From: Escherichia coli
GTDB lineage: Bacteria > Pseudomonadota > Gammaproteobacteria > Enterobacterales > Enterobacteriaceae
DNA length: 64,000 nucleotides
NCBI RefSeq assembly: GCF_003334765.1
Contig: NZ_QOWT01000007.1
Direction: 5' to 3' (one strand)
Shown here: piece by piece, positions 295 through 60,119 of the stretch
How the letters are laid out: each line of letters starts with the position of its first letter
Numbering within the stretch: position 1 is the first letter of the stretch
Position numbers and translations under genes: made by a program
Notes under the pieces: model-generated
The model's input: only the letters and a program-made list of their open reading frames with translations
What the model was told of the DNA's origin: nothing
Databases searched by the model: none

Positions 295-392
295 GCCTGA
301 TGCGCTACGCTTATCAGGCCTACGAAAATCTTGCAATGTATTGAATTTTCATGATTTTGTAGGCCGGATAAGGCGTTCACGCCGCATCCGGC
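295..392. repeat. REP/RIP (BIME-like) intergenic element: two inverted REP units flanking an AT-rich core
   Basis: GCCTGATGCGCTACGCTTATCAGGCCTAC ... TTGAATTT ... GTAGGCCGGATAAGGCGTTCACGCCGCATCCGGC; a near-identical architecture recurs at 50402-50480. Confidence 0.55.
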
Positions 393-10459: not shown

Positions 10460-10555
10460 GTAGCCGATGAGGACGCGCCTGATGGGTGTTCTGGCTACCT
10501 GACCTGTCCATTGTGGAAGGTCTTACATTCTCGCTGATTTCAGGAGCTATTGATT
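10460..10555 (+). promoter_or_regulatory. ibpA 5' UTR (ROSE-like RNA thermometer region)
   Basis: About 95-nt leader between the sigma-32 promoter and the ibpA ATG, ending in SD AGGAGC; ibpA is a described RNA-thermometer-controlled gene. Confidence 0.45.
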
Positions 10556-10969
10556 ATGCGTAACTTTGATTTATCCCCGCTTTACCGTTCTGCTATTGGA
10601 TTTGACCGTTTGTTTAACCACTTAGAAAACAACCAGAGCCAGAGTAATGGCGGCTACCCTCCGTATAACGTTGAACTGGTAGACGAAAACCATTACCGCA
10701 TTGCTATCGCTGTGGCTGGTTTTGCTGAGAGCGAACTGGAAATTACCGCCCAGGATAATCTGCTGGTGGTGAAAGGTGCTCACGCCGACGAACAAAAAGA
10801 GCGCACCTATCTGTACCAGGGCATCGCTGAACGCAACTTTGAACGCAAATTCCAGTTAGCTGAGAACATTCATGTTCGTGGTGCTAACCTGGTAAATGGT
10901 TTGCTGTATATCGATCTCGAACGCGTGATTCCGGAAGCGAAAAAACCGCGCCGTATCGAAATCAACTAA
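10556..10969 (+). CDS. ibpA: Small heat shock protein IbpA
   Basis: 137 aa starting [24 protein letters not shown]; alpha-crystallin domain; the track start at 10550 is TTG. Confidence 0.95.
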
Positions 10970-17861: not shown

Positions 17862-19814
17862 ATGAATTCGTTACAAATCTTGAGTTTTGTCGGTTTTACG
17901 CTGCTGGTGGCGGTGATCACCTGGTGGAAGGTCCGCAAAACAGATACCGGATCGCAACAAGGCTATTTTCTTGCCGGACGTTCACTAAAAGCGCCGGTTA
18001 TTGCCGCTTCGTTAATGCTAACCAACCTTTCCACGGAACAACTGGTCGGCCTTTCCGGGCAGGCCTACAAAAGCGGCATGTCGGTGATGGGCTGGGAAGT
18101 GACTTCAGCGGTGACGCTGATCTTCCTCGCGCTAATCTTTTTACCGCGCTATCTGAAGCGCGGCATTGCCACCATCCCCGATTTTCTGGAGGAACGTTAT
18201 GATAAAACGACGCGTATTATCATCGACTTCTGCTTCCTAATTGCCACCGGCGTCTGCTTTCTGCCGATTGTTCTCTACTCCGGCGCGTTGGCGCTCAACA
18301 GCCTGTTTCACGTCGGGGAATCGCTACAGATTTCTCACGGTGCGGCTATCTGGCTACTGGTAATTTTGCTTGGTCTGGCGGGAATTTTGTATGCGGTGAT
18401 CGGCGGACTGCGCGCAATGGCAGTGGCGGACTCCATCAACGGTATTGGGCTGGTTATCGGCGGGTTGATGGTGCCGGTATTTGGCCTGATCGCGATGGGC
18501 AAGGGCAGCTTTATGCAGGGCATTGAGCAACTCACCACCGTTCACGCCGAGAAATTAAACTCAATCGGTGGCCCGACCGATCCCTTGCCGATTGGCGCGG
18601 CATTTACCGGTTTGATTCTGGTGAACACCTTTTACTGGTGTACAAATCAGGGCATCGTGCAACGCACGCTGGCGTCAAAAAGCCTGGCGGAAGGGCAAAA
18701 GGGGGCGCTGTTAACGGCGGTGCTGAAAATGCTCGACCCGCTGGTACTGGTGCTGCCAGGGTTGATTGCGTTTCATCTGTATCAGGATTTACCGAAAGCC
18801 GACATGGCCTACCCGACGCTGGTCAATAACGTTCTGCCAGTGCCAATGGTGGGTTTCTTCGGCGCGGTGTTATTTGGTGCGGTGATCAGTACCTTCAACG
18901 GCTTTCTGAATAGCGCCAGTACGTTATTCAGTATGGGTATTTACCGTCGCATCATTAACCAGAATGCCGAGCCGCAGCAGCTGGTCACCGTCGGGCGCAA
19001 ATTTGGTTTCTTTATCGCTATCGTTTCGGTGCTGGTCGCGCCGTGGATCGCCAACGCGCCGCAGGGGCTGTATAGCTGGATGAAACAGCTCAACGGCATT
19101 TACAACGTGCCGCTGGTTACCATCATCATTATGGGCTTTTTCTTCCCGCGCATCCCGGCGCTGGCGGCAAAAGTAGCGATGGGGATTGGCATAATCAGCT
19201 ACATCACCATCAACTATCTGGTGAAGTTCGACTTCCATTTCCTCTATGTGCTGGCCTGTACGTTCTGCATCAACGTGGTCGTGATGCTGGTGATCGGTTT
19301 TATCAAACCGCGCGCCACGCCGTTCACCTTCAAAGATGCGTTTGCGGTGGACATGAAACCGTGGAAAAACGTCAAGATCGCGTCAATTGGCATCCTGTTC
19401 GCGATGATTGGCGTCTATGCCGGGCTGGCTGAATTCGGCGGCTACGGTACGCGCTGGTTAGCGATGATCAGTTATTTCATTGCCGCCGTAGTGATTGTCT
19501 ACCTGATTTTTGACAGCTGGCGGCGGAAGGTATTCGCTTTAATTCCGCCTACACCTGTTCACCGGTTTGTACGCCTGCACGGGCCGGACTATTTACCGGT
19601 ATCTACGCTAACCAGTCCGGCCCGTGGACCAACAACGTCGCGCCAGGCAAAAACATCTCCACTATGGGGCGCTACTTTAAGGATGCCGGCTATCACACCT
19701 GTTACATCGGCAAATGGCATCTCGACGGTCATGACTATTTCGGCACTGGCGAGTGTCCGCCGGAGTGGGACGCTGATTACTGGTTCGATGGGGCGAACTA
19801 TCTTAGCGAACTGA
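17862..19814 (+). CDS. yidK: SSS-family Na+/solute symporter YidK with an aberrant 3' end (reads out of frame into sulfatase DNA)
   Basis: Multi-TM transporter sequence to about codon 550 (...AAVVIVYLIFDSW), then about 100 codons of Pro/Arg/Ser/Thr-rich sequence overlapping the sulfatase gene in another frame; native end probably lost. Confidence 0.7.
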   Translation: MNSLQILSFVGFTLLVAVITWWKVRKTDTGSQQGYFLAGRSLKAPVIAASLMLTNLSTEQLVGLSGQAYKSGMSVMGWEVTSAVTLIFLALIFLPRYLKRGIATIPDFLEERYDKTTRIIIDFCFLIATGVCFLPIVLYSGALALNSLFHVGESLQISHGAAIWLLVILLGLAGILYAVIGGLRAMAVADSINGIGLVIGGLMVPVFGLIAMGKGSFMQGIEQLTTVHAEKLNSIGGPTDPLPIGAAFTGLILVNTFYWCTNQGIVQRTLASKSLAEGQKGALLTAVLKMLDPLVLVLPGLIAFHLYQDLPKADMAYPTLVNNVLPVPMVGFFGAVLFGAVISTFNGFLNSASTLFSMGIYRRIINQNAEPQQLVTVGRKFGFFIAIVSVLVAPWIANAPQGLYSWMKQLNGIYNVPLVTIIIMGFFFPRIPALAAKVAMGIGIISYITINYLVKFDFHFLYVLACTFCINVVVMLVIGFIKPRATPFTFKDAFAVDMKPWKNVKIASIGILFAMIGVYAGLAEFGGYGTRWLAMISYFIAAVVIVYLIFDSWRRKVFALIPPTPVHRFVRLHGPDYLPVSTLTSPARGPTTSRQAKTSPLWGATLRMPAITPVTSANGISTVMTISALASVRRSGTLITGSMGRTILAN

Positions 19815-23897: not shown

Positions 23898-24063
23898 TAT
23901 CACGGATGCTTTTATAAAAATAATTAGAATAAGTCACTACGCATTCCCATAAATGCGGGAGAGGAATCTATCACATTGATGAATGTTAGCCAGATATACG
24001 CCAGGAATGGGGAATTGTTTAGCGGCAGAATATGTAAACAAAAGCGGCAATAAATGTTGCCGG

Positions 24064-24101
24064 GAGAGATGGTAGGGCGGATAAGATGCGTCAGCATCGC
24101 A
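24064..24101. repeat. REP element
   Basis: GTAGGGCGGATAAGATGCGTCAGCATCGCATCCGACAC, a REP-type imperfect palindrome. Confidence 0.4.
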
Positions 24102-24127
24102 TCCGACACCAACCCGCACGCTAAATA

Positions 24128-24157
24128 TAAAAGGGGAGCGGTTTCCCGCTCCCCTTT
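24128..24157 (-). terminator. Rho-independent terminator downstream of tisB
   Basis: On the minus strand, GGGGAGCGG ... CCGCTCCCC hairpin followed by TTTTATATTT. Confidence 0.55.
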
Positions 24158-24176
24158 GGTGCGACTTGAATCTGAA

Positions 24177-24266
24177 TTACTTCAGGTATTTCAGAACAGC
24201 ATCAAGCAGTTGCAGTGCTGCAACAATGAGTTTGAGGATAAGAATGGCGATATCCACCAGGTTCAT
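24177..24266 (-). CDS. tisB: Type I toxin TisB (29-aa membrane peptide, SOS-induced)
   Basis: Reverse-strand translation gives MNLVDIAILILKLIVAALQLLDAVLKYLK, the TisB sequence; below the 60-aa track cutoff. Confidence 0.9.
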   Translation of the reverse strand: MNLVDIAILILKLIVAALQLLDAVLKYLK

Positions 24267-24502
24267 ACGCGTCTCCTGTGGTTCAGGAGCACTGCCAGCT
24301 GACGTACCTTTCCGCTGCCTGTTGCCAGCTGTTGTGCACGCGGTATCTCAAGGAGAAACGTTGTGCTTGTTGACATAACACAGTGTGCTCACGCGGGGTT
24401 AAGGCGCTGACGGCACCACCCGTTTCAGCCAGGACTTAGTGCGCCGGGTAACGATGCGGCCCCCGCATAACACATTGCGTACAGTGATATTATAGAAGTT
24501 TA

Positions 24503-24518
24503 CTGTATAAATAAACAG
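24503..24518. promoter_or_regulatory. LexA box (SOS operator) for the tisAB / istR-2 divergent promoters
   Basis: CTGTATAAATAAACAG, a perfect CTGT-N8-ACAG match, about 240 bp upstream of tisB. Confidence 0.7.
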
Positions 24519-24591
24519 TAATATTTGGACAAAACGCAAACTGTGATCGATACTCAACTATGCACTAAATACGTCAAAATTCGTGCCGAAA

Positions 24592-24620
24592 TTGCGCGTT
24601 CTGCGCGGAACACGTATACT
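24592..24620 (+). promoter_or_regulatory. Candidate sigma-70 promoter of IstR-1
   Basis: TTGCGC (24592-97), 17-bp spacer, TATACT (24615-20), placing the start near 24627. Confidence 0.4.
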
Positions 24621-24626
24621 TTCAGT

Positions 24627-24701
24627 GTTGACATAATACAGTGTGCTTTGCGGTTACCAGCCGCAGGCGACTGACGAAACCTCGCTCCGGCGGGGTTTTT
24701 T
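24627..24701 (+). ncRNA. istR: IstR-1 antitoxin sRNA (about 75 nt)
   Basis: Starts GTTGACATAATACAGTGTGCT, a 20/21 direct-repeat copy of 24369-24389 in the tisAB leader (so antisense to the divergent transcript); ends in hairpin CCTCGCTCCGGCGGGG plus TTTTTT. Confidence 0.55.
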
Positions 24702-24830
24702 GTTATCTGCAATTCAGTACAAAACGTGATCAACCCCTCAATTTTCCCTTGCTGAAAAATTTTCCATTGTCTCCCCTGTAAAGCTGTGCTTGTATAAATA
24801 TTGTTAAACACAAAACCAACAAGGTCCCCA

Positions 24831-24929
24831 ATGACTACTTCCATGCTCAACGCAAAACTACTACCAACTGCGCCATCCGCCGCAGTGGTCGTCGTGCGTG
24901 TGGTGGTGGTCGTCGGCAATGCGCCGTAG
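24831..24929 (+). CDS. ivbL: ilvB operon leader peptide
   Basis: MTTSMLNAKLLPTAPSAAVVVVRVVVVVGNAP, a 32-aa Val/Leu-rich leader, 100 bp upstream of ilvB. Confidence 0.9.
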   Translation: MTTSMLNAKLLPTAPSAAVVVVRVVVVVGNAP

Positions 24930-24952: not shown

Positions 24953-24987
24953 AAAACCCCGCCGGCGCAAACCGGGCGGGGTTTTTC
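24953..24987 (+). terminator. ilvBN attenuator terminator
   Basis: AAAACCCCGCCGGCGCAAACCGGGCGGGGTTTTTCG, hairpin plus T-run immediately after ivbL. Confidence 0.7.
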
Positions 24988-25034
24988 GTTTAAGCACCTC
25001 CCGGAAAGTCGGCCCAGAAGAAAAGGACTGGAGC

Positions 25035-26723
25035 ATGGCAAGTTCGGGCACAACATCGACGCGTAAGCGCTTTACCGGCGCAGAATTTATCGTTCATTTC
25101 CTGGAACAGCAGGGCATTAAGATTGTGACAGGCATTCCGGGCGGTTCTATCCTGCCTGTTTACGATGCCTTAAGCCAAAGCACGCAAATCCGCCATATTC
25201 TGGCCCGTCATGAACAGGGCGCGGGCTTTATCGCTCAGGGAATGGCGCGCACCGACGGTAAACCGGCGGTCTGTATGGCCTGTAGCGGACCGGGTGCGAC
25301 TAACCTGGTGACCGCCATTGCCGATGCGCGGCTGGACTCCATCCCGCTGATTTGCATCACTGGTCAGGTTCCCGCCTCGATGATCGGCACCGACGCCTTC
25401 CAGGAAGTGGACACCTACGGCATCTCTATCCCCATCACCAAACACAACTATCTGGTCAGACATATCGAAGAACTCCCGCAGGTCATGAGCGATGCCTTCC
25501 GCATTGCGCAATCAGGCCGCCCAGGCCCGGTGTGGATAGACATTCCTAAGGATGTGCAAACGGCAGTTTTTGAGATTGAAACACAGCCCGCTATGGCAGA
25601 AAAAGCCGCCGCCCCCGCCTTTAGCGAAGAAAGCATTCGTGACGCAGCGGCGATGATTAACGCTGCCAAACGCCCGGTGCTTTATCTGGGCGGCGGTGTG
25701 ATCAATGCGCCCGCACGGGTGCGTGAACTGGCGGAGAAAGCGCAACTGCCTACCACCATGACTTTAATGGCGCTGGGCATGTTGCCAAAAGCGCATCCGT
25801 TGTCGCTGGGTATGCTGGGGATGCACGGCGTGCGCAGCACCAACTATATTTTGCAGGAGGCGGATTTGTTGATAGTGCTCGGTGCGCGTTTTGATGACCG
25901 GGCGATTGGCAAAACCGAGCAGTTCTGTCCGAATGCCAAAATCATTCATGTCGATATCGACCGTGCAGAGCTGGGTAAAATCAAGCAGCCGCACGTGGCG
26001 ATTCAGGCGGATGTTGATGACGTGCTGGCGCAGTTGATCCCGCTGGTGGAAGCGCAACCGCGTGCAGAGTGGCACCAGTTGGTAGCGGATTTGCAGCGTG
26101 AGTTTCCGTGTCCAATCCCGAAAGCGTGCGATCCGTTAAGCCATTACGGCCTGATCAACGCCGTTGCCGCCTGTGTCGATGACAATGCAATTATCACCAC
26201 CGACGTTGGTCAGCATCAGATGTGGACCGCGCAAGCTTATCCGCTCAATCGCCCACGCCAGTGGCTGACCTCCGGTGGGCTGGGCACGATGGGTTTTGGC
26301 CTGCCTGCGGCGATTGGCGCTGCGCTGGCGAACCCGGATCGCAAAGTGTTGTGTTTCTCCGGCGACGGCAGCCTGATGATGAATATTCAGGAGATGGCGA
26401 CCGCCAGTGAAAATCAGCTGGATGTCAAAATCATTCTGATGAACAACGAAGCGCTGGGGCTGGTGCATCAGCAACAGAGTCTGTTCTACGAGCAAGGCGT
26501 TTTTGCCGCCACCTATCCGGGCAAAATCAACTTTATGCAGATTGCCGCCGGATTCGGCCTCGAAACCTGTGATTTGAATAACGAAGCCGATCCGCAGGCT
26601 TCATTGCAGGAAATCATCAATCGCCCTGGCCCGGCGCTGATCCATGTGCGCATTGATGCCGAAGAAAAAGTTTACCCGATGGTGCCGCCAGGTGCGGCGA
26701 ATACTGAAATGGTGGGGGAATAA
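25035..26723 (+). CDS. ilvB: Acetolactate synthase I, large (catalytic) subunit
   Basis: 562-aa ThDP-dependent enzyme; sequence recognised as IlvB. Confidence 0.95.
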   Translation: MASSGTTSTRKRFTGAEFIVHFLEQQGIKIVTGIPGGSILPVYDALSQSTQIRHILARHEQGAGFIAQGMARTDGKPAVCMACSGPGATNLVTAIADARLDSIPLICITGQVPASMIGTDAFQEVDTYGISIPITKHNYLVRHIEELPQVMSDAFRIAQSGRPGPVWIDIPKDVQTAVFEIETQPAMAEKAAAPAFSEESIRDAAAMINAAKRPVLYLGGGVINAPARVRELAEKAQLPTTMTLMALGMLPKAHPLSLGMLGMHGVRSTNYILQEADLLIVLGARFDDRAIGKTEQFCPNAKIIHVDIDRAELGKIKQPHVAIQADVDDVLAQLIPLVEAQPRAEWHQLVADLQREFPCPIPKACDPLSHYGLINAVAACVDDNAIITTDVGQHQMWTAQAYPLNRPRQWLTSGGLGTMGFGLPAAIGAALANPDRKVLCFSGDGSLMMNIQEMATASENQLDVKIILMNNEALGLVHQQQSLFYEQGVFAATYPGKINFMQIAAGFGLETCDLNNEADPQASLQEIINRPGPALIHVRIDAEEKVYPMVPPGAANTEMVGE

Positions 26724-30651: not shown

Positions 30652-32043
30652 ATGCTGGCTTTCTTAAACCAGGTTCGCAAGCCGACCCTGGACCTTCCGC
30701 TCGAAGTGCGGCGCAAAATGTGGTTCAAACCGTTCATGCAATCCTACCTGGTGGTCTTTATCGGCTACCTGACGATGTACCTGATTCGCAAGAACTTTAA
30801 CATCGCGCAGAACGATATGATTTCGACCTACGGGTTGAGCATGACGCAGCTGGGGATGATCGGCCTGGGTTTCTCCATCACTTATGGCGTGGGTAAAACG
30901 CTGGTTTCCTACTACGCCGACGGCAAAAACACCAAACAATTCCTGCCGTTCATGCTGATCCTCTCTGCTATTTGTATGCTGGGCTTCAGTGCCAGTATGG
31001 GCAGCGGCTCGGTTAGCCTGTTCCTGATGATTGCCTTCTACGCCTTAAGCGGCTTTTTCCAGAGTACCGGCGGTTCGTGCAGTTACTCCACCATCACCAA
31101 ATGGACGCCGCGTCGTAAACGCGGGACATTCCTCGGTTTCTGGAATATTTCTCACAACCTTGGCGGTGCAGGCGCAGCAGGTGTGGCGCTGTTCGGGGCA
31201 AATTACCTGTTCGATGGCCATGTCATCGGCATGTTTATCTTCCCGTCGATTATCGCGCTGATTGTCGGTTTTATCGGCCTGCGTTACGGCAGCGACTCCC
31301 CGGAATCTTATGGCCTCGGCAAAGCTGAAGAACTGTTCGGCGAGGAGATCAGCGAAGAGGACAAAGAGACAGAATCTACCGATATGACCAAGTGGCAGAT
31401 CTTTGTTGAGTATGTGCTGAAAAACAAAGTGATCTGGCTGCTGTGCTTCGCCAACATTTTCCTCTATGTGGTACGTATTGGTATCGACCAGTGGTCAACC
31501 GTATACGCGTTCCAGGAACTGAAACTCTCTAAAGCGGTGGCGATTCAGGGCTTTACGCTGTTTGAAGCTGGTGCGCTGGTCGGTACGCTGCTGTGGGGCT
31601 GGCTCTCTGACCTGGCGAACGGTCGCCGTGGCCTGGTGGCCTGCATCGCGCTGGCGCTGATTATCGCCACGCTCGGTGTGTATCAACATGCCAGTAACGA
31701 ATATATCTATCTGGCTTCTCTCTTTGCGTTGGGTTTCCTGGTCTTTGGCCCGCAATTGTTGATTGGTGTGGCTGCTGTTGGCTTTGTACCTAAAAAAGCG
31801 ATTGGCGCTGCCGATGGTATTAAAGGCACCTTTGCTTACCTGATTGGTGACAGCTTTGCCAAGTTAGGTCTGGGAATGATTGCCGATGGGACGCCGGTAT
31901 TCGGCCTTACCGGCTGGGCAGGCACCTTCGCCGCGCTGGATATCGCCGCGATTGGTTGTATCTGCCTGATGGCGATAGTGGCGGTAATGGAAGAACGCAA
32001 AATCCGCCGCGAGAAAAAAATTCAGCAGTTGACAGTGGCATAA
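30652..32043 (+). CDS. uhpT: Hexose-6-phosphate:phosphate antiporter UhpT
   Basis: 463-aa MFS protein; sequence recognised as UhpT. Confidence 0.95.
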
Positions 32044-41502: not shown

Positions 41503-41597
41503 TGGCGGAAGATCACAGGAGTCGAACCTGCCCGGGACCGCTGGCGGCCCCAACTGGATTTGAAGTCCAGCCGCCTCACCGGAGACGACGATCTTCC
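41503..41597 (-). tRNA. selC: tRNA-Sec (selenocysteine tRNA, UCA anticodon)
   Basis: Reverse complement is GGAAGATCGTCGTCTCCGGTGAGGCGGCTGGACTTCAAATCCAGTTGGGGCCGCCAGCGGTCCCGGGCAGGTTCGACTCCTGTGATCTTCCGCCA, the 95-nt E. coli selC sequence with the long variable arm. Confidence 0.97.
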
Positions 41598-60103: not shown

Positions 60104-60119
60104 CTGTATTTATATACAG
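60104..60119. promoter_or_regulatory. LexA box of dinD
   Basis: CTGTATTTATATACAG, a perfect CTGT-N8-ACAG match. Confidence 0.7.

Follow-up and report, generated by a model that had tools for sequence, protein, structure and literature searches.

We found, at positions 24128–24701 of the window (the whole stretch of Escherichia coli DNA that was analysed, 64 kb in length), the gene of the small toxin TisB with its leader ORF tisA, a LexA box and, in divergent orientation, the small RNAs IstR-1 and IstR-2. Since Rfam, NCBIfam and BLAST, three independent tests, agree on the identity of the locus, there can be hardly any doubt that it represents the K-12 sequence form of tisAB/istR, a chromosomal type I toxin-antitoxin locus of E. 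coli, and no feature of the sequence speaks against this. A BLAST search with positions 24000–24850 gave 100% identity to E. coli K-12 MG1655 over all 851 nt, and the same identity to C600 and many other strains, with tisB, ysdE and ivbL annotated beneath the match. The K-12 system has reportedly been studied by Vogel et al. 2004, Darfeuille et al. 2007 and Romilly et al. 2019 and 2020. Likeness to K-12 tisB/istR-1 is complete and extends to Asn2 of the peptide, the promoter hexamers, the LexA box, the 21-nt block, the pseudoknot nucleotides and the terminators; there is no difference inside the locus, although the surrounding genome is not strictly that of MG1655.

A preliminary description of this DNA, made from the letters alone, had already regarded the tisB/IstR-1 module as a known system and not a novel one, and had proposed a BLASTN comparison with the K-12 tisB/istR locus as a check. 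The identity over 851 nt bears this out: the system at 24128–24701 is already known, is identical to that of K-12 and adds nothing new, and its interest is low because a known system is found here with the reference sequence. RefSeq annotates tisB in K-12 at coordinates that correspond to those of the preliminary description; an istR feature was not found in the RefSeq records fetched, though tisB is listed there. All five sequence claims of that description stood, but IstR-2, tisA, the +42 processing and the standby mechanism had been left out of it. The sequence elements, the K-12 identity, the family membership, the pairing and the conservation across genera were established directly in the present analysis.

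TisB is encoded on the minus strand at 24177–24266, stop codon included (translation, NCBIfam, RefSeq). This stretch translates to MNLVDIAILILKLIVAALQLLDAVLKYLK*, 29 aa in length, exactly the peptide that had been quoted before, and the stop codon follows it. A failure of the peptide to match TisB had been named beforehand as the refuting test; in fact it matches both NCBIfam equivalog models above their cut-offs, NF011340 with 69.6 bits (cut-off 53) and TIGR04459 with 59.9 bits (cut-off 38), over residues 1–29 of 29. As judged from its sequence, the product is the hydrophobic inner-membrane toxin TisB, 29 aa long, in the K-12-type Asn2 variant, and its putative toxicity follows from published work on a peptide of the same sequence. 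That peptide has been described as toxic, depolarising the membrane and leading to persister formation, and as being neutralised by IstR-1 (PMC2826370, PMC8145889, PMC11264685).

The statement that an ORF track had missed tisB is plausible, as 29 aa is below the usual length cut-offs and spurious plus-strand ORFs overlap the gene. Two such antisense ORFs cover tisB and tisA, one of 82 aa at 24054–24302 and one of 70 aa at 24166–24378. They are mechanical, spurious frames that are unannotated in K-12, and an ORF track would display them instead of the toxin gene. On the minus strand, the ORF list also contains the 37-aa leader ORF tisA (24263–24376), which overlaps the tisB start as ATGA. Its peptide has no NCBIfam match, and its start codon (+107, window position 24376) sits within the IstR-1 duplex described below.

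The tisAB transcript and its SOS promoter

The tisAB mRNA ends in an intrinsic terminator at 24130–24157 (minus strand) with a 12-bp stem, a GAAA loop and a T-rich tail, found by inverted-repeat and terminator scans. Its arms, 24130–24141 and 24146–24157, form a perfect inverted repeat (100% complementary, 8 G-C pairs of 12). The earlier claim that tisB has its own terminator is thus correct, the terminator-like hairpin 24157–24130 lying directly 3' of the ORF.

At the other end, the transcription start was placed by means of the published nucleotide numbering. With +1 at 24482, nt 54–57 read GCUG and nt 74–77 read CAGC, exactly as published (PMC7708055); the arms of pseudoknot stem 2 were mutated in that study as G54, C55, U56, G57 and C74, A75, G76, C77 (Romilly et al. 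2020, PMC7708055). Because this numbering is reproduced, we take 24482 as the start of the primary (+1) transcript, which would cover 24128–24482 on the minus strand (about 355 nt). A -10 hexamer TATAAT lies upstream at 24489–24494 (minus strand), and the same hexamer is given for tisAB in PMC11264685. By the published numbering, the active isoform's 5' end (+42) corresponds to window position 24441, that of the RNase III product (+106) to 24377 and the tisB AUG (+217) to 24266, all on the minus strand. The 5' end of the +42 mRNA is followed by a stem-loop and pseudoknot element at 24406–24441 (minus strand, numbering of PMC7708055), in which the loop nucleotides G54–G57 (24429–24426) face the partner C74–C77 (24409–24406). 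The tisB Shine-Dalgarno (SD) sequence AGGAGA is found at 24272–24277 (minus strand, mRNA nt 206–211) and is the RBS hexamer reported in PMC11264685.

A motif scan and comparison with the consensus placed a LexA (SOS) box, TACTGTATAAATAAACAGTA, at 24501–24520, a feature without strand assignment. Its core at 24503–24518, CTGTATAAATAAACAG, has the form CTGT-N8-ACAG, of which the 64 kb contain two copies against 0.69 expected by chance. The description of this box as perfect holds for the core motif, but not for the full 20-mer, which agrees with the palindromic consensus TACTGTATATATATACAGTA at 18 of 20 positions. The box is situated between the tisAB -10 and the istR-2 -35 hexamers; the core motif stops 9 bp upstream of the former, and the latter follows directly downstream. 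The second CTGT-N8-ACAG copy of the window, at 60104–60119, belongs to the 20-mer AACTGTATTTATATACAGTT (17 of 20 positions), some 45 bp upstream from where dinD starts, a classic SOS gene whose known SOS box this is.

Secondary structure prediction placed the region from the SD to the AUG in paired conformation in the +1, +42 and +106 isoforms alike, with a probability of being unpaired of about 0.2. In the minimum-energy fold of the +1 mRNA, nt 3–13 are paired with nt 94–105, which buries part of the standby site. The mean unpaired probability of the IstR-1 target was 0.38 in the +1 and 0.47 in the +42 form (McCaskill), a modest difference; the accessibility switch between these two forms is only weakly reproduced by the thermodynamic prediction, which we do not count as separate evidence for it.

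IstR-1, IstR-2 and their pairing with the tisAB leader

Two promoters direct transcription towards the other side. The istR-2 promoter consists of TGGACA, a 17-nt spacer and GATACT at 24526–24554 (plus strand, promoter scan; hexamers in PMC11264685), and IstR-2 would extend over about 140 nt from 24562 to 24701 (plus strand, RF01400), its 5' end following from the position of the -10 hexamer. For istR-1, the sequence reads TATACT as -10 hexamer at 24615–24620 (plus strand), as in PMC11264685. Since the -10 hexamer has this position, the 5' end of IstR-1 should be near 24627, and together with the published size this gives a putative RNA of about 75 nt at 24627–24701 (plus strand).

In the Rfam scan, which had been suggested as a check, istR (RF01400) matched 24572–24701 on the plus strand with 150.1 bits (gathering score 45, E = 5e-32) over model positions 1–130 of 130. 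The match recurred when the whole window was scanned, and what it represents is IstR-2, the long form induced by SOS, within which IstR-1 is contained. The proposed identity of the small RNA as IstR-1 is well founded, as the score is more than three times the gathering score and the TATACT hexamer fits a start at 24627. The expectation of a divergent small RNA of about 75 nt with a terminator at about 24701 agrees as well with what was found, namely a hairpin at 24676–24699 with a T-run and an Rfam match that ends at 24701. IstR-1 accordingly reads as an antisense block (24627–24647), an internal stem-loop and the terminator (24676–24699) with its U-run; in the predicted fold, the first 12 nt are unpaired and are followed by two hairpins.

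The antisense block is one copy of a direct repeat of 22 nt (24368–24389 and 24626–24647, 95% identical) with a single C/T difference. The other copy lies in the tisAB leader (24368–24389, minus strand, mRNA nt 94–115), where it constitutes both the IstR-1 target and the single-stranded standby ribosome site. With tisAB and istR running in divergent directions, two direct copies at the DNA level amount to RNA complementarity in trans. The 21-nt repeat described before (24369–24389 and 24627–24647) is real and is contained in the 22-nt one, but its one mismatch becomes a wobble in RNA: the C/T difference places a U of IstR-1 opposite a G of the mRNA, which leaves 21–22 contiguous pairs with one G·U. 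The repeat had been named as the source of the antisense complementarity, and these uninterrupted pairs are in line with the 21 nt given in the literature (PMC4147584).

For the duplex that IstR-1 forms with the tisAB mRNA, the calculated energy corresponds to z = -6 relative to dinucleotide shuffles. When the antisense strand of istR itself is set aside, the best partner of IstR-1 nt 1–30 in the entire window is the tisAB leader, with -45.2 kcal/mol as compared with -29.1 kcal/mol for the next best. A 70-nt duplex of full-length IstR-1 with the mRNA, calculated by duplexfold at -78 kcal/mol, was discarded, for it ignores intramolecular structure and shuffled sequences reach -54 kcal/mol. Within the predicted IstR-1 duplex, we treat only the 5' block of 21–22 nt as real pairing.

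Some 100 nt of mRNA separate this block from the tisB SD downstream (nt 94–115 as against 206–211), a distance that bears on how the antitoxin acts. Direct occlusion of the tisB RBS or start codon by IstR-1, in the manner of Sok on mok/hok, is the commonest mode of type I antitoxins and would be a reasonable default without tools. Yet the SD at 206–211 and the AUG at 217 are some 100 nt downstream of the block, and because of this distance simple occlusion is disfavoured. The sole start codon beneath the duplex is that of tisA (+107), which is unconserved in the Citrobacter and Salmonella loci, and competition at the standby site has been demonstrated experimentally (PMC7708055, PMC6690012). 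We consider direct occlusion very improbable and adhere to the standby mechanism.

Conservation, distribution and surroundings of the locus

When 100,044 species genomes were scanned with an exact pattern that combined both repeat cores at E. coli-like spacing, 15 loci came out, four of them from Escherichia, nine from Citrobacter and two from Salmonella enterica subspecies. Every one of these loci has a full-length Rfam istR match (114–150 bits) and a LexA box at a constant offset of 132–135 nt from the leader copy. Both repeat copies are kept in 15 of 15 loci from the three genera, conservation of the cores being partly built in, as the scan demanded both 14-nt cores intact. The stem-loop/CAGC pseudoknot element is invariant in all 16 leaders, in all of which the 5' closing helix is predicted as well. 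A search for two-sided covariation in the intramolecular helices of IstR gave 0 pairs (RNAalifold, 15 sequences); as these sequences are too similar to one another, the outcome speaks neither in favour of the structure nor against it.

The 29-aa TisB ORF is present in all 14 loci with an untruncated toxin side. These 14 ORFs from related species genomes all encode Ser2, and the Asn2 of the window represents the minority form found in K-12. Ser2 has been described as the TisB consensus, present in about 85% of loci and somewhat more toxic at low induction (PMC11264685). The leader ORF tisA behaves differently from one locus to the next. The window and three of the four Escherichia loci have it intact, and E. 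coli E69 has it with a frameshift; most Citrobacter leaders, shorter by about 34 nt, lack the ORF, and it differs in C. sedlakii and S. diarizonae. Outside Escherichia, it shows no conservation in the Citrobacter and Salmonella loci, where it is absent, shortened or frameshifted. That the ORF is missing, frameshifted or different among related loci agrees with the idea that tisA does not function as a coding gene.

Apart from one position, the substitutions seen within the pairing block leave the duplex intact. Citrobacter sp. Res13 carries a two-sided compensatory change, T to C in both copies, which converts a U-A into a C-G pair, and several C-to-T changes in IstR produce U·G pairs in the part of the block that the search pattern did not fix. 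One position in Res13 does not pair; it is 2 nt from the end of the 22-nt block and leaves 20 contiguous pairs. In the other loci, breaks in the pairing always occur at one common boundary. Compensatory mutagenesis that restores repression has reportedly been published already for K-12.

Short two-copy repeats often arise by chance, and both 22-nt copies contain TTGACA, the sigma-70 -35 consensus, so that one could regard them as a chance repeat or a promoter-like pair and look for the targets of the small RNA elsewhere. The copies lie, however, within both transcripts and not upstream of them. They are also kept in the 15 loci of three genera with changes that preserve pairing save for the one Res13 position, the duplex stands out against shuffles (z = -6) with no comparable partner elsewhere in the window, and the pairing is backed by published genetics and RNase III data (PMC4147584). 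We regard such a coincidence as scarcely conceivable, and read the two copies as antisense block and target.

A repeat search further revealed a 12-nt motif, CATAAYACAKTG, in three copies (24374–24385, 24466–24477 and 24632–24643), which fall into the IstR-1 target, nt 6–17 of the +1 tisAB mRNA and IstR-1 itself, respectively. According to the predicted fold, the 5' copy is part of the stretch that would sequester the standby site. A hand count gave 11 of 12 possible pairs between IstR-1 and nt 6–17 of the +1 mRNA. A second similarity block links 24387–24400 to the 3' half of the IstR terminator, 24684–24697 (12 of 14 positions); most Escherichia and Citrobacter loci have 10–12 of 14, and against shuffles the similarity reached significance in Escherichia and in part of the Citrobacter loci, whereas in Salmonella it did not. 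It is conceivable, but on balance rather unlikely, that one locally duplicated sequence gave rise to antitoxin, target and the 5' element by which the mRNA inhibits itself, and that IstR-1 could also pair with nt 6–17 of the +1 mRNA. If this were true, the pairing at nt 6–17 would add an undescribed second contact. The 12-nt sequence is, however, quasi-palindromic (ACAC...GUGU), and stems rich in G+C easily come to resemble each other, which weakens the reading of a common origin.

Within E. coli, 4151 of 5426 complete genomes carry at least 80% of the 574 nt of the locus, 208 further genomes have partial matches and 1067 have none. This distribution agrees with the report that the tisB/istR locus is widespread across E. 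coli with variable copy number (PMC11264685). The locus is therefore dispensable, and the window does not derive from MG1655, its second half being 99.25% identical and a 159-nt deletion lying elsewhere; both points could be taken to mean that the source strain retains only a decayed, non-functional remnant. The promoters, the LexA box, the ORF, the leader and istR are nevertheless all 100% identical to the characterised K-12 sequence over the 851 nt, and the probability of a remnant is so small as to be negligible.

The differences from MG1655 lie elsewhere in the window. At a junction at 19517–19525, between yidK and yidJ, the window lacks 159 nt of MG1655 (19366–19524 of the K-12 region that was fetched), flanked there by the direct repeat CTGGCGGC. 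With it, yidK has lost its 3' end and yidJ its 5' end, and the reading frame is not kept across the junction. When eight complete E. coli genomes were sampled down the ranking of matches, the yidK/yidJ query aligned in two pieces spanning about 610 nt in all seven full-length matches. The loss looks like a microhomology-mediated deletion or an artefact of assembly or editing. Positions 1–32000 of the window are 99.97% identical to MG1655, but positions 32001–64000 only 99.25% (231 mismatches). Because of this difference between the two halves, the source is not MG1655; compared with K-12 it has a mosaic look, for which a recombination tract may be responsible.

Some smaller elements were noticed near the locus. 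The 24-aa ORF ysdE, MNVSQIYARNGELFSGRICKQKRQ (23979–24053, plus strand), situated between emrD and the terminator of tisB, is intact; protein YsdE is listed in RefSeq, and the gene is too short for a length-thresholded ORF track. The adjacent sequence at about 24070–24112, GCGGATAAGATGCGTCAGCATCGCATCCGAC, looks like a REP-type palindromic element. A BLAST query that included this flank matched 12042 places in 5425 genomes, as compared with 4566 places in 4359 genomes without it. On the other side lie the ilvB leader peptide ivbL, MTTSMLNAKLLPTAPSAAVVVVRVVVVVGNAP (24831–24929, plus strand), and its attenuator terminator (24955–25000). A candidate Pseudomonas sRNA P6 at 24955–25140 was rejected as a chance match, since its score of 22 bits stays below the gathering score of 50 and only the ilvB attenuator hairpin was aligned. 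Matches at gathering level elsewhere in the window comprised a ROSE_2 thermosensor in the ibpA 5' UTR (10490–10562, plus strand, 100 bits), the tRNA-Sec gene selC (41507–41597, minus strand, 84 bits), which adjoins a rhuM pseudogene fragment in K-12, and the small RNA ES036/CssrF between gyrB and yidB (316–358, minus strand, 45 bits). The Rfam gathering scan and the RefSeq genes of the collinear K-12 region revealed no further toxin-antitoxin module in the 64-kb window, in agreement with the earlier impression that tisB/istR-1 is the only one.

Mode of regulation and relation to other type I systems

The transcription pattern, the mRNA processing, ribosome loading at the standby site, the cut by RNase III, toxicity and persistence are taken from the literature on the same sequence. 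Previous work has described SOS-induced tisAB and istR-2, constitutive IstR-1, processing to +42 and an RNase III cut to +106 (PMC4147584, PMC7708055, PMC11264685), as well as an antisense site that is located some 100 nt upstream from the RBS of tisB and acts by competition for the standby site and RNase III cleavage (PMC4147584, PMC7708055). The in-silico folds are consistent with this published standby model.

In the uninduced cell, LexA bound to 24501–24520 would repress the divergent promoters of tisAB (minus strand) and istR-2 (plus strand), while IstR-1 (24627–24701) would be made constitutively from its own promoter. DNA damage should lead to cleavage of LexA and to synthesis of the +1 tisAB mRNA of about 355 nt, from 24482 to about 24128. 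This primary mRNA would be inert, with the RBS buried and the 5' end paired around nt 94–105. Removal of 41 nt would give the +42 mRNA, in which the 5' pseudoknot and the single-stranded stretch at about nt 94–115 may serve as standby site. There a 30S subunit could load via protein S1 and then reach the sequestered RBS about 100 nt downstream. The 5' 21 nt of IstR-1 would pair with the standby stretch and exclude the standby ribosome, and the resulting duplex would be a substrate for RNase III, yielding the inactive +106 form. Once tisAB mRNA exceeds IstR-1, TisB (29 aa) would insert into the inner membrane, and the collapse of proton-motive force and ATP could bring the cell into a drug-tolerant persister state.

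Several features recur in other divergent type I loci of E. coli. Like tisB/istR-1, the dinQ/agrB, shoB/ohsC and zor/orz systems encode a small hydrophobic inner-membrane toxin, possess a long structured 5' UTR that needs 5' processing for translation and employ a divergent trans-acting sRNA that pairs far upstream of the RBS; dinQ shares LexA control with tisAB (PMC4147584, PMC7708055, PMC3567139). Their toxins and RNAs, however, are not homologous to TisB and IstR, and none of these systems was found in the window by the Rfam scan or among the collinear K-12 RefSeq genes. The hok/sok system likewise combines an antisense RNA antitoxin and a small membrane-depolarising toxin with an activating processing of the mRNA and a duplex that is cut by RNase III (PMC4147584). 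It differs in that Sok is cis-encoded, overlaps its target and blocks translation of the coupled leader ORF mok, in that the hok mRNA is activated by 3' processing and the tisAB mRNA by 5' processing, and in that LexA control is absent.

For annotation, the locus illustrates that a 29-aa toxin gene and a small RNA escape length-thresholded ORF tracks. In general, tisB/istR-1 is a model for antibiotic persistence driven by an SOS-induced toxin and for translation control by standby ribosomes.
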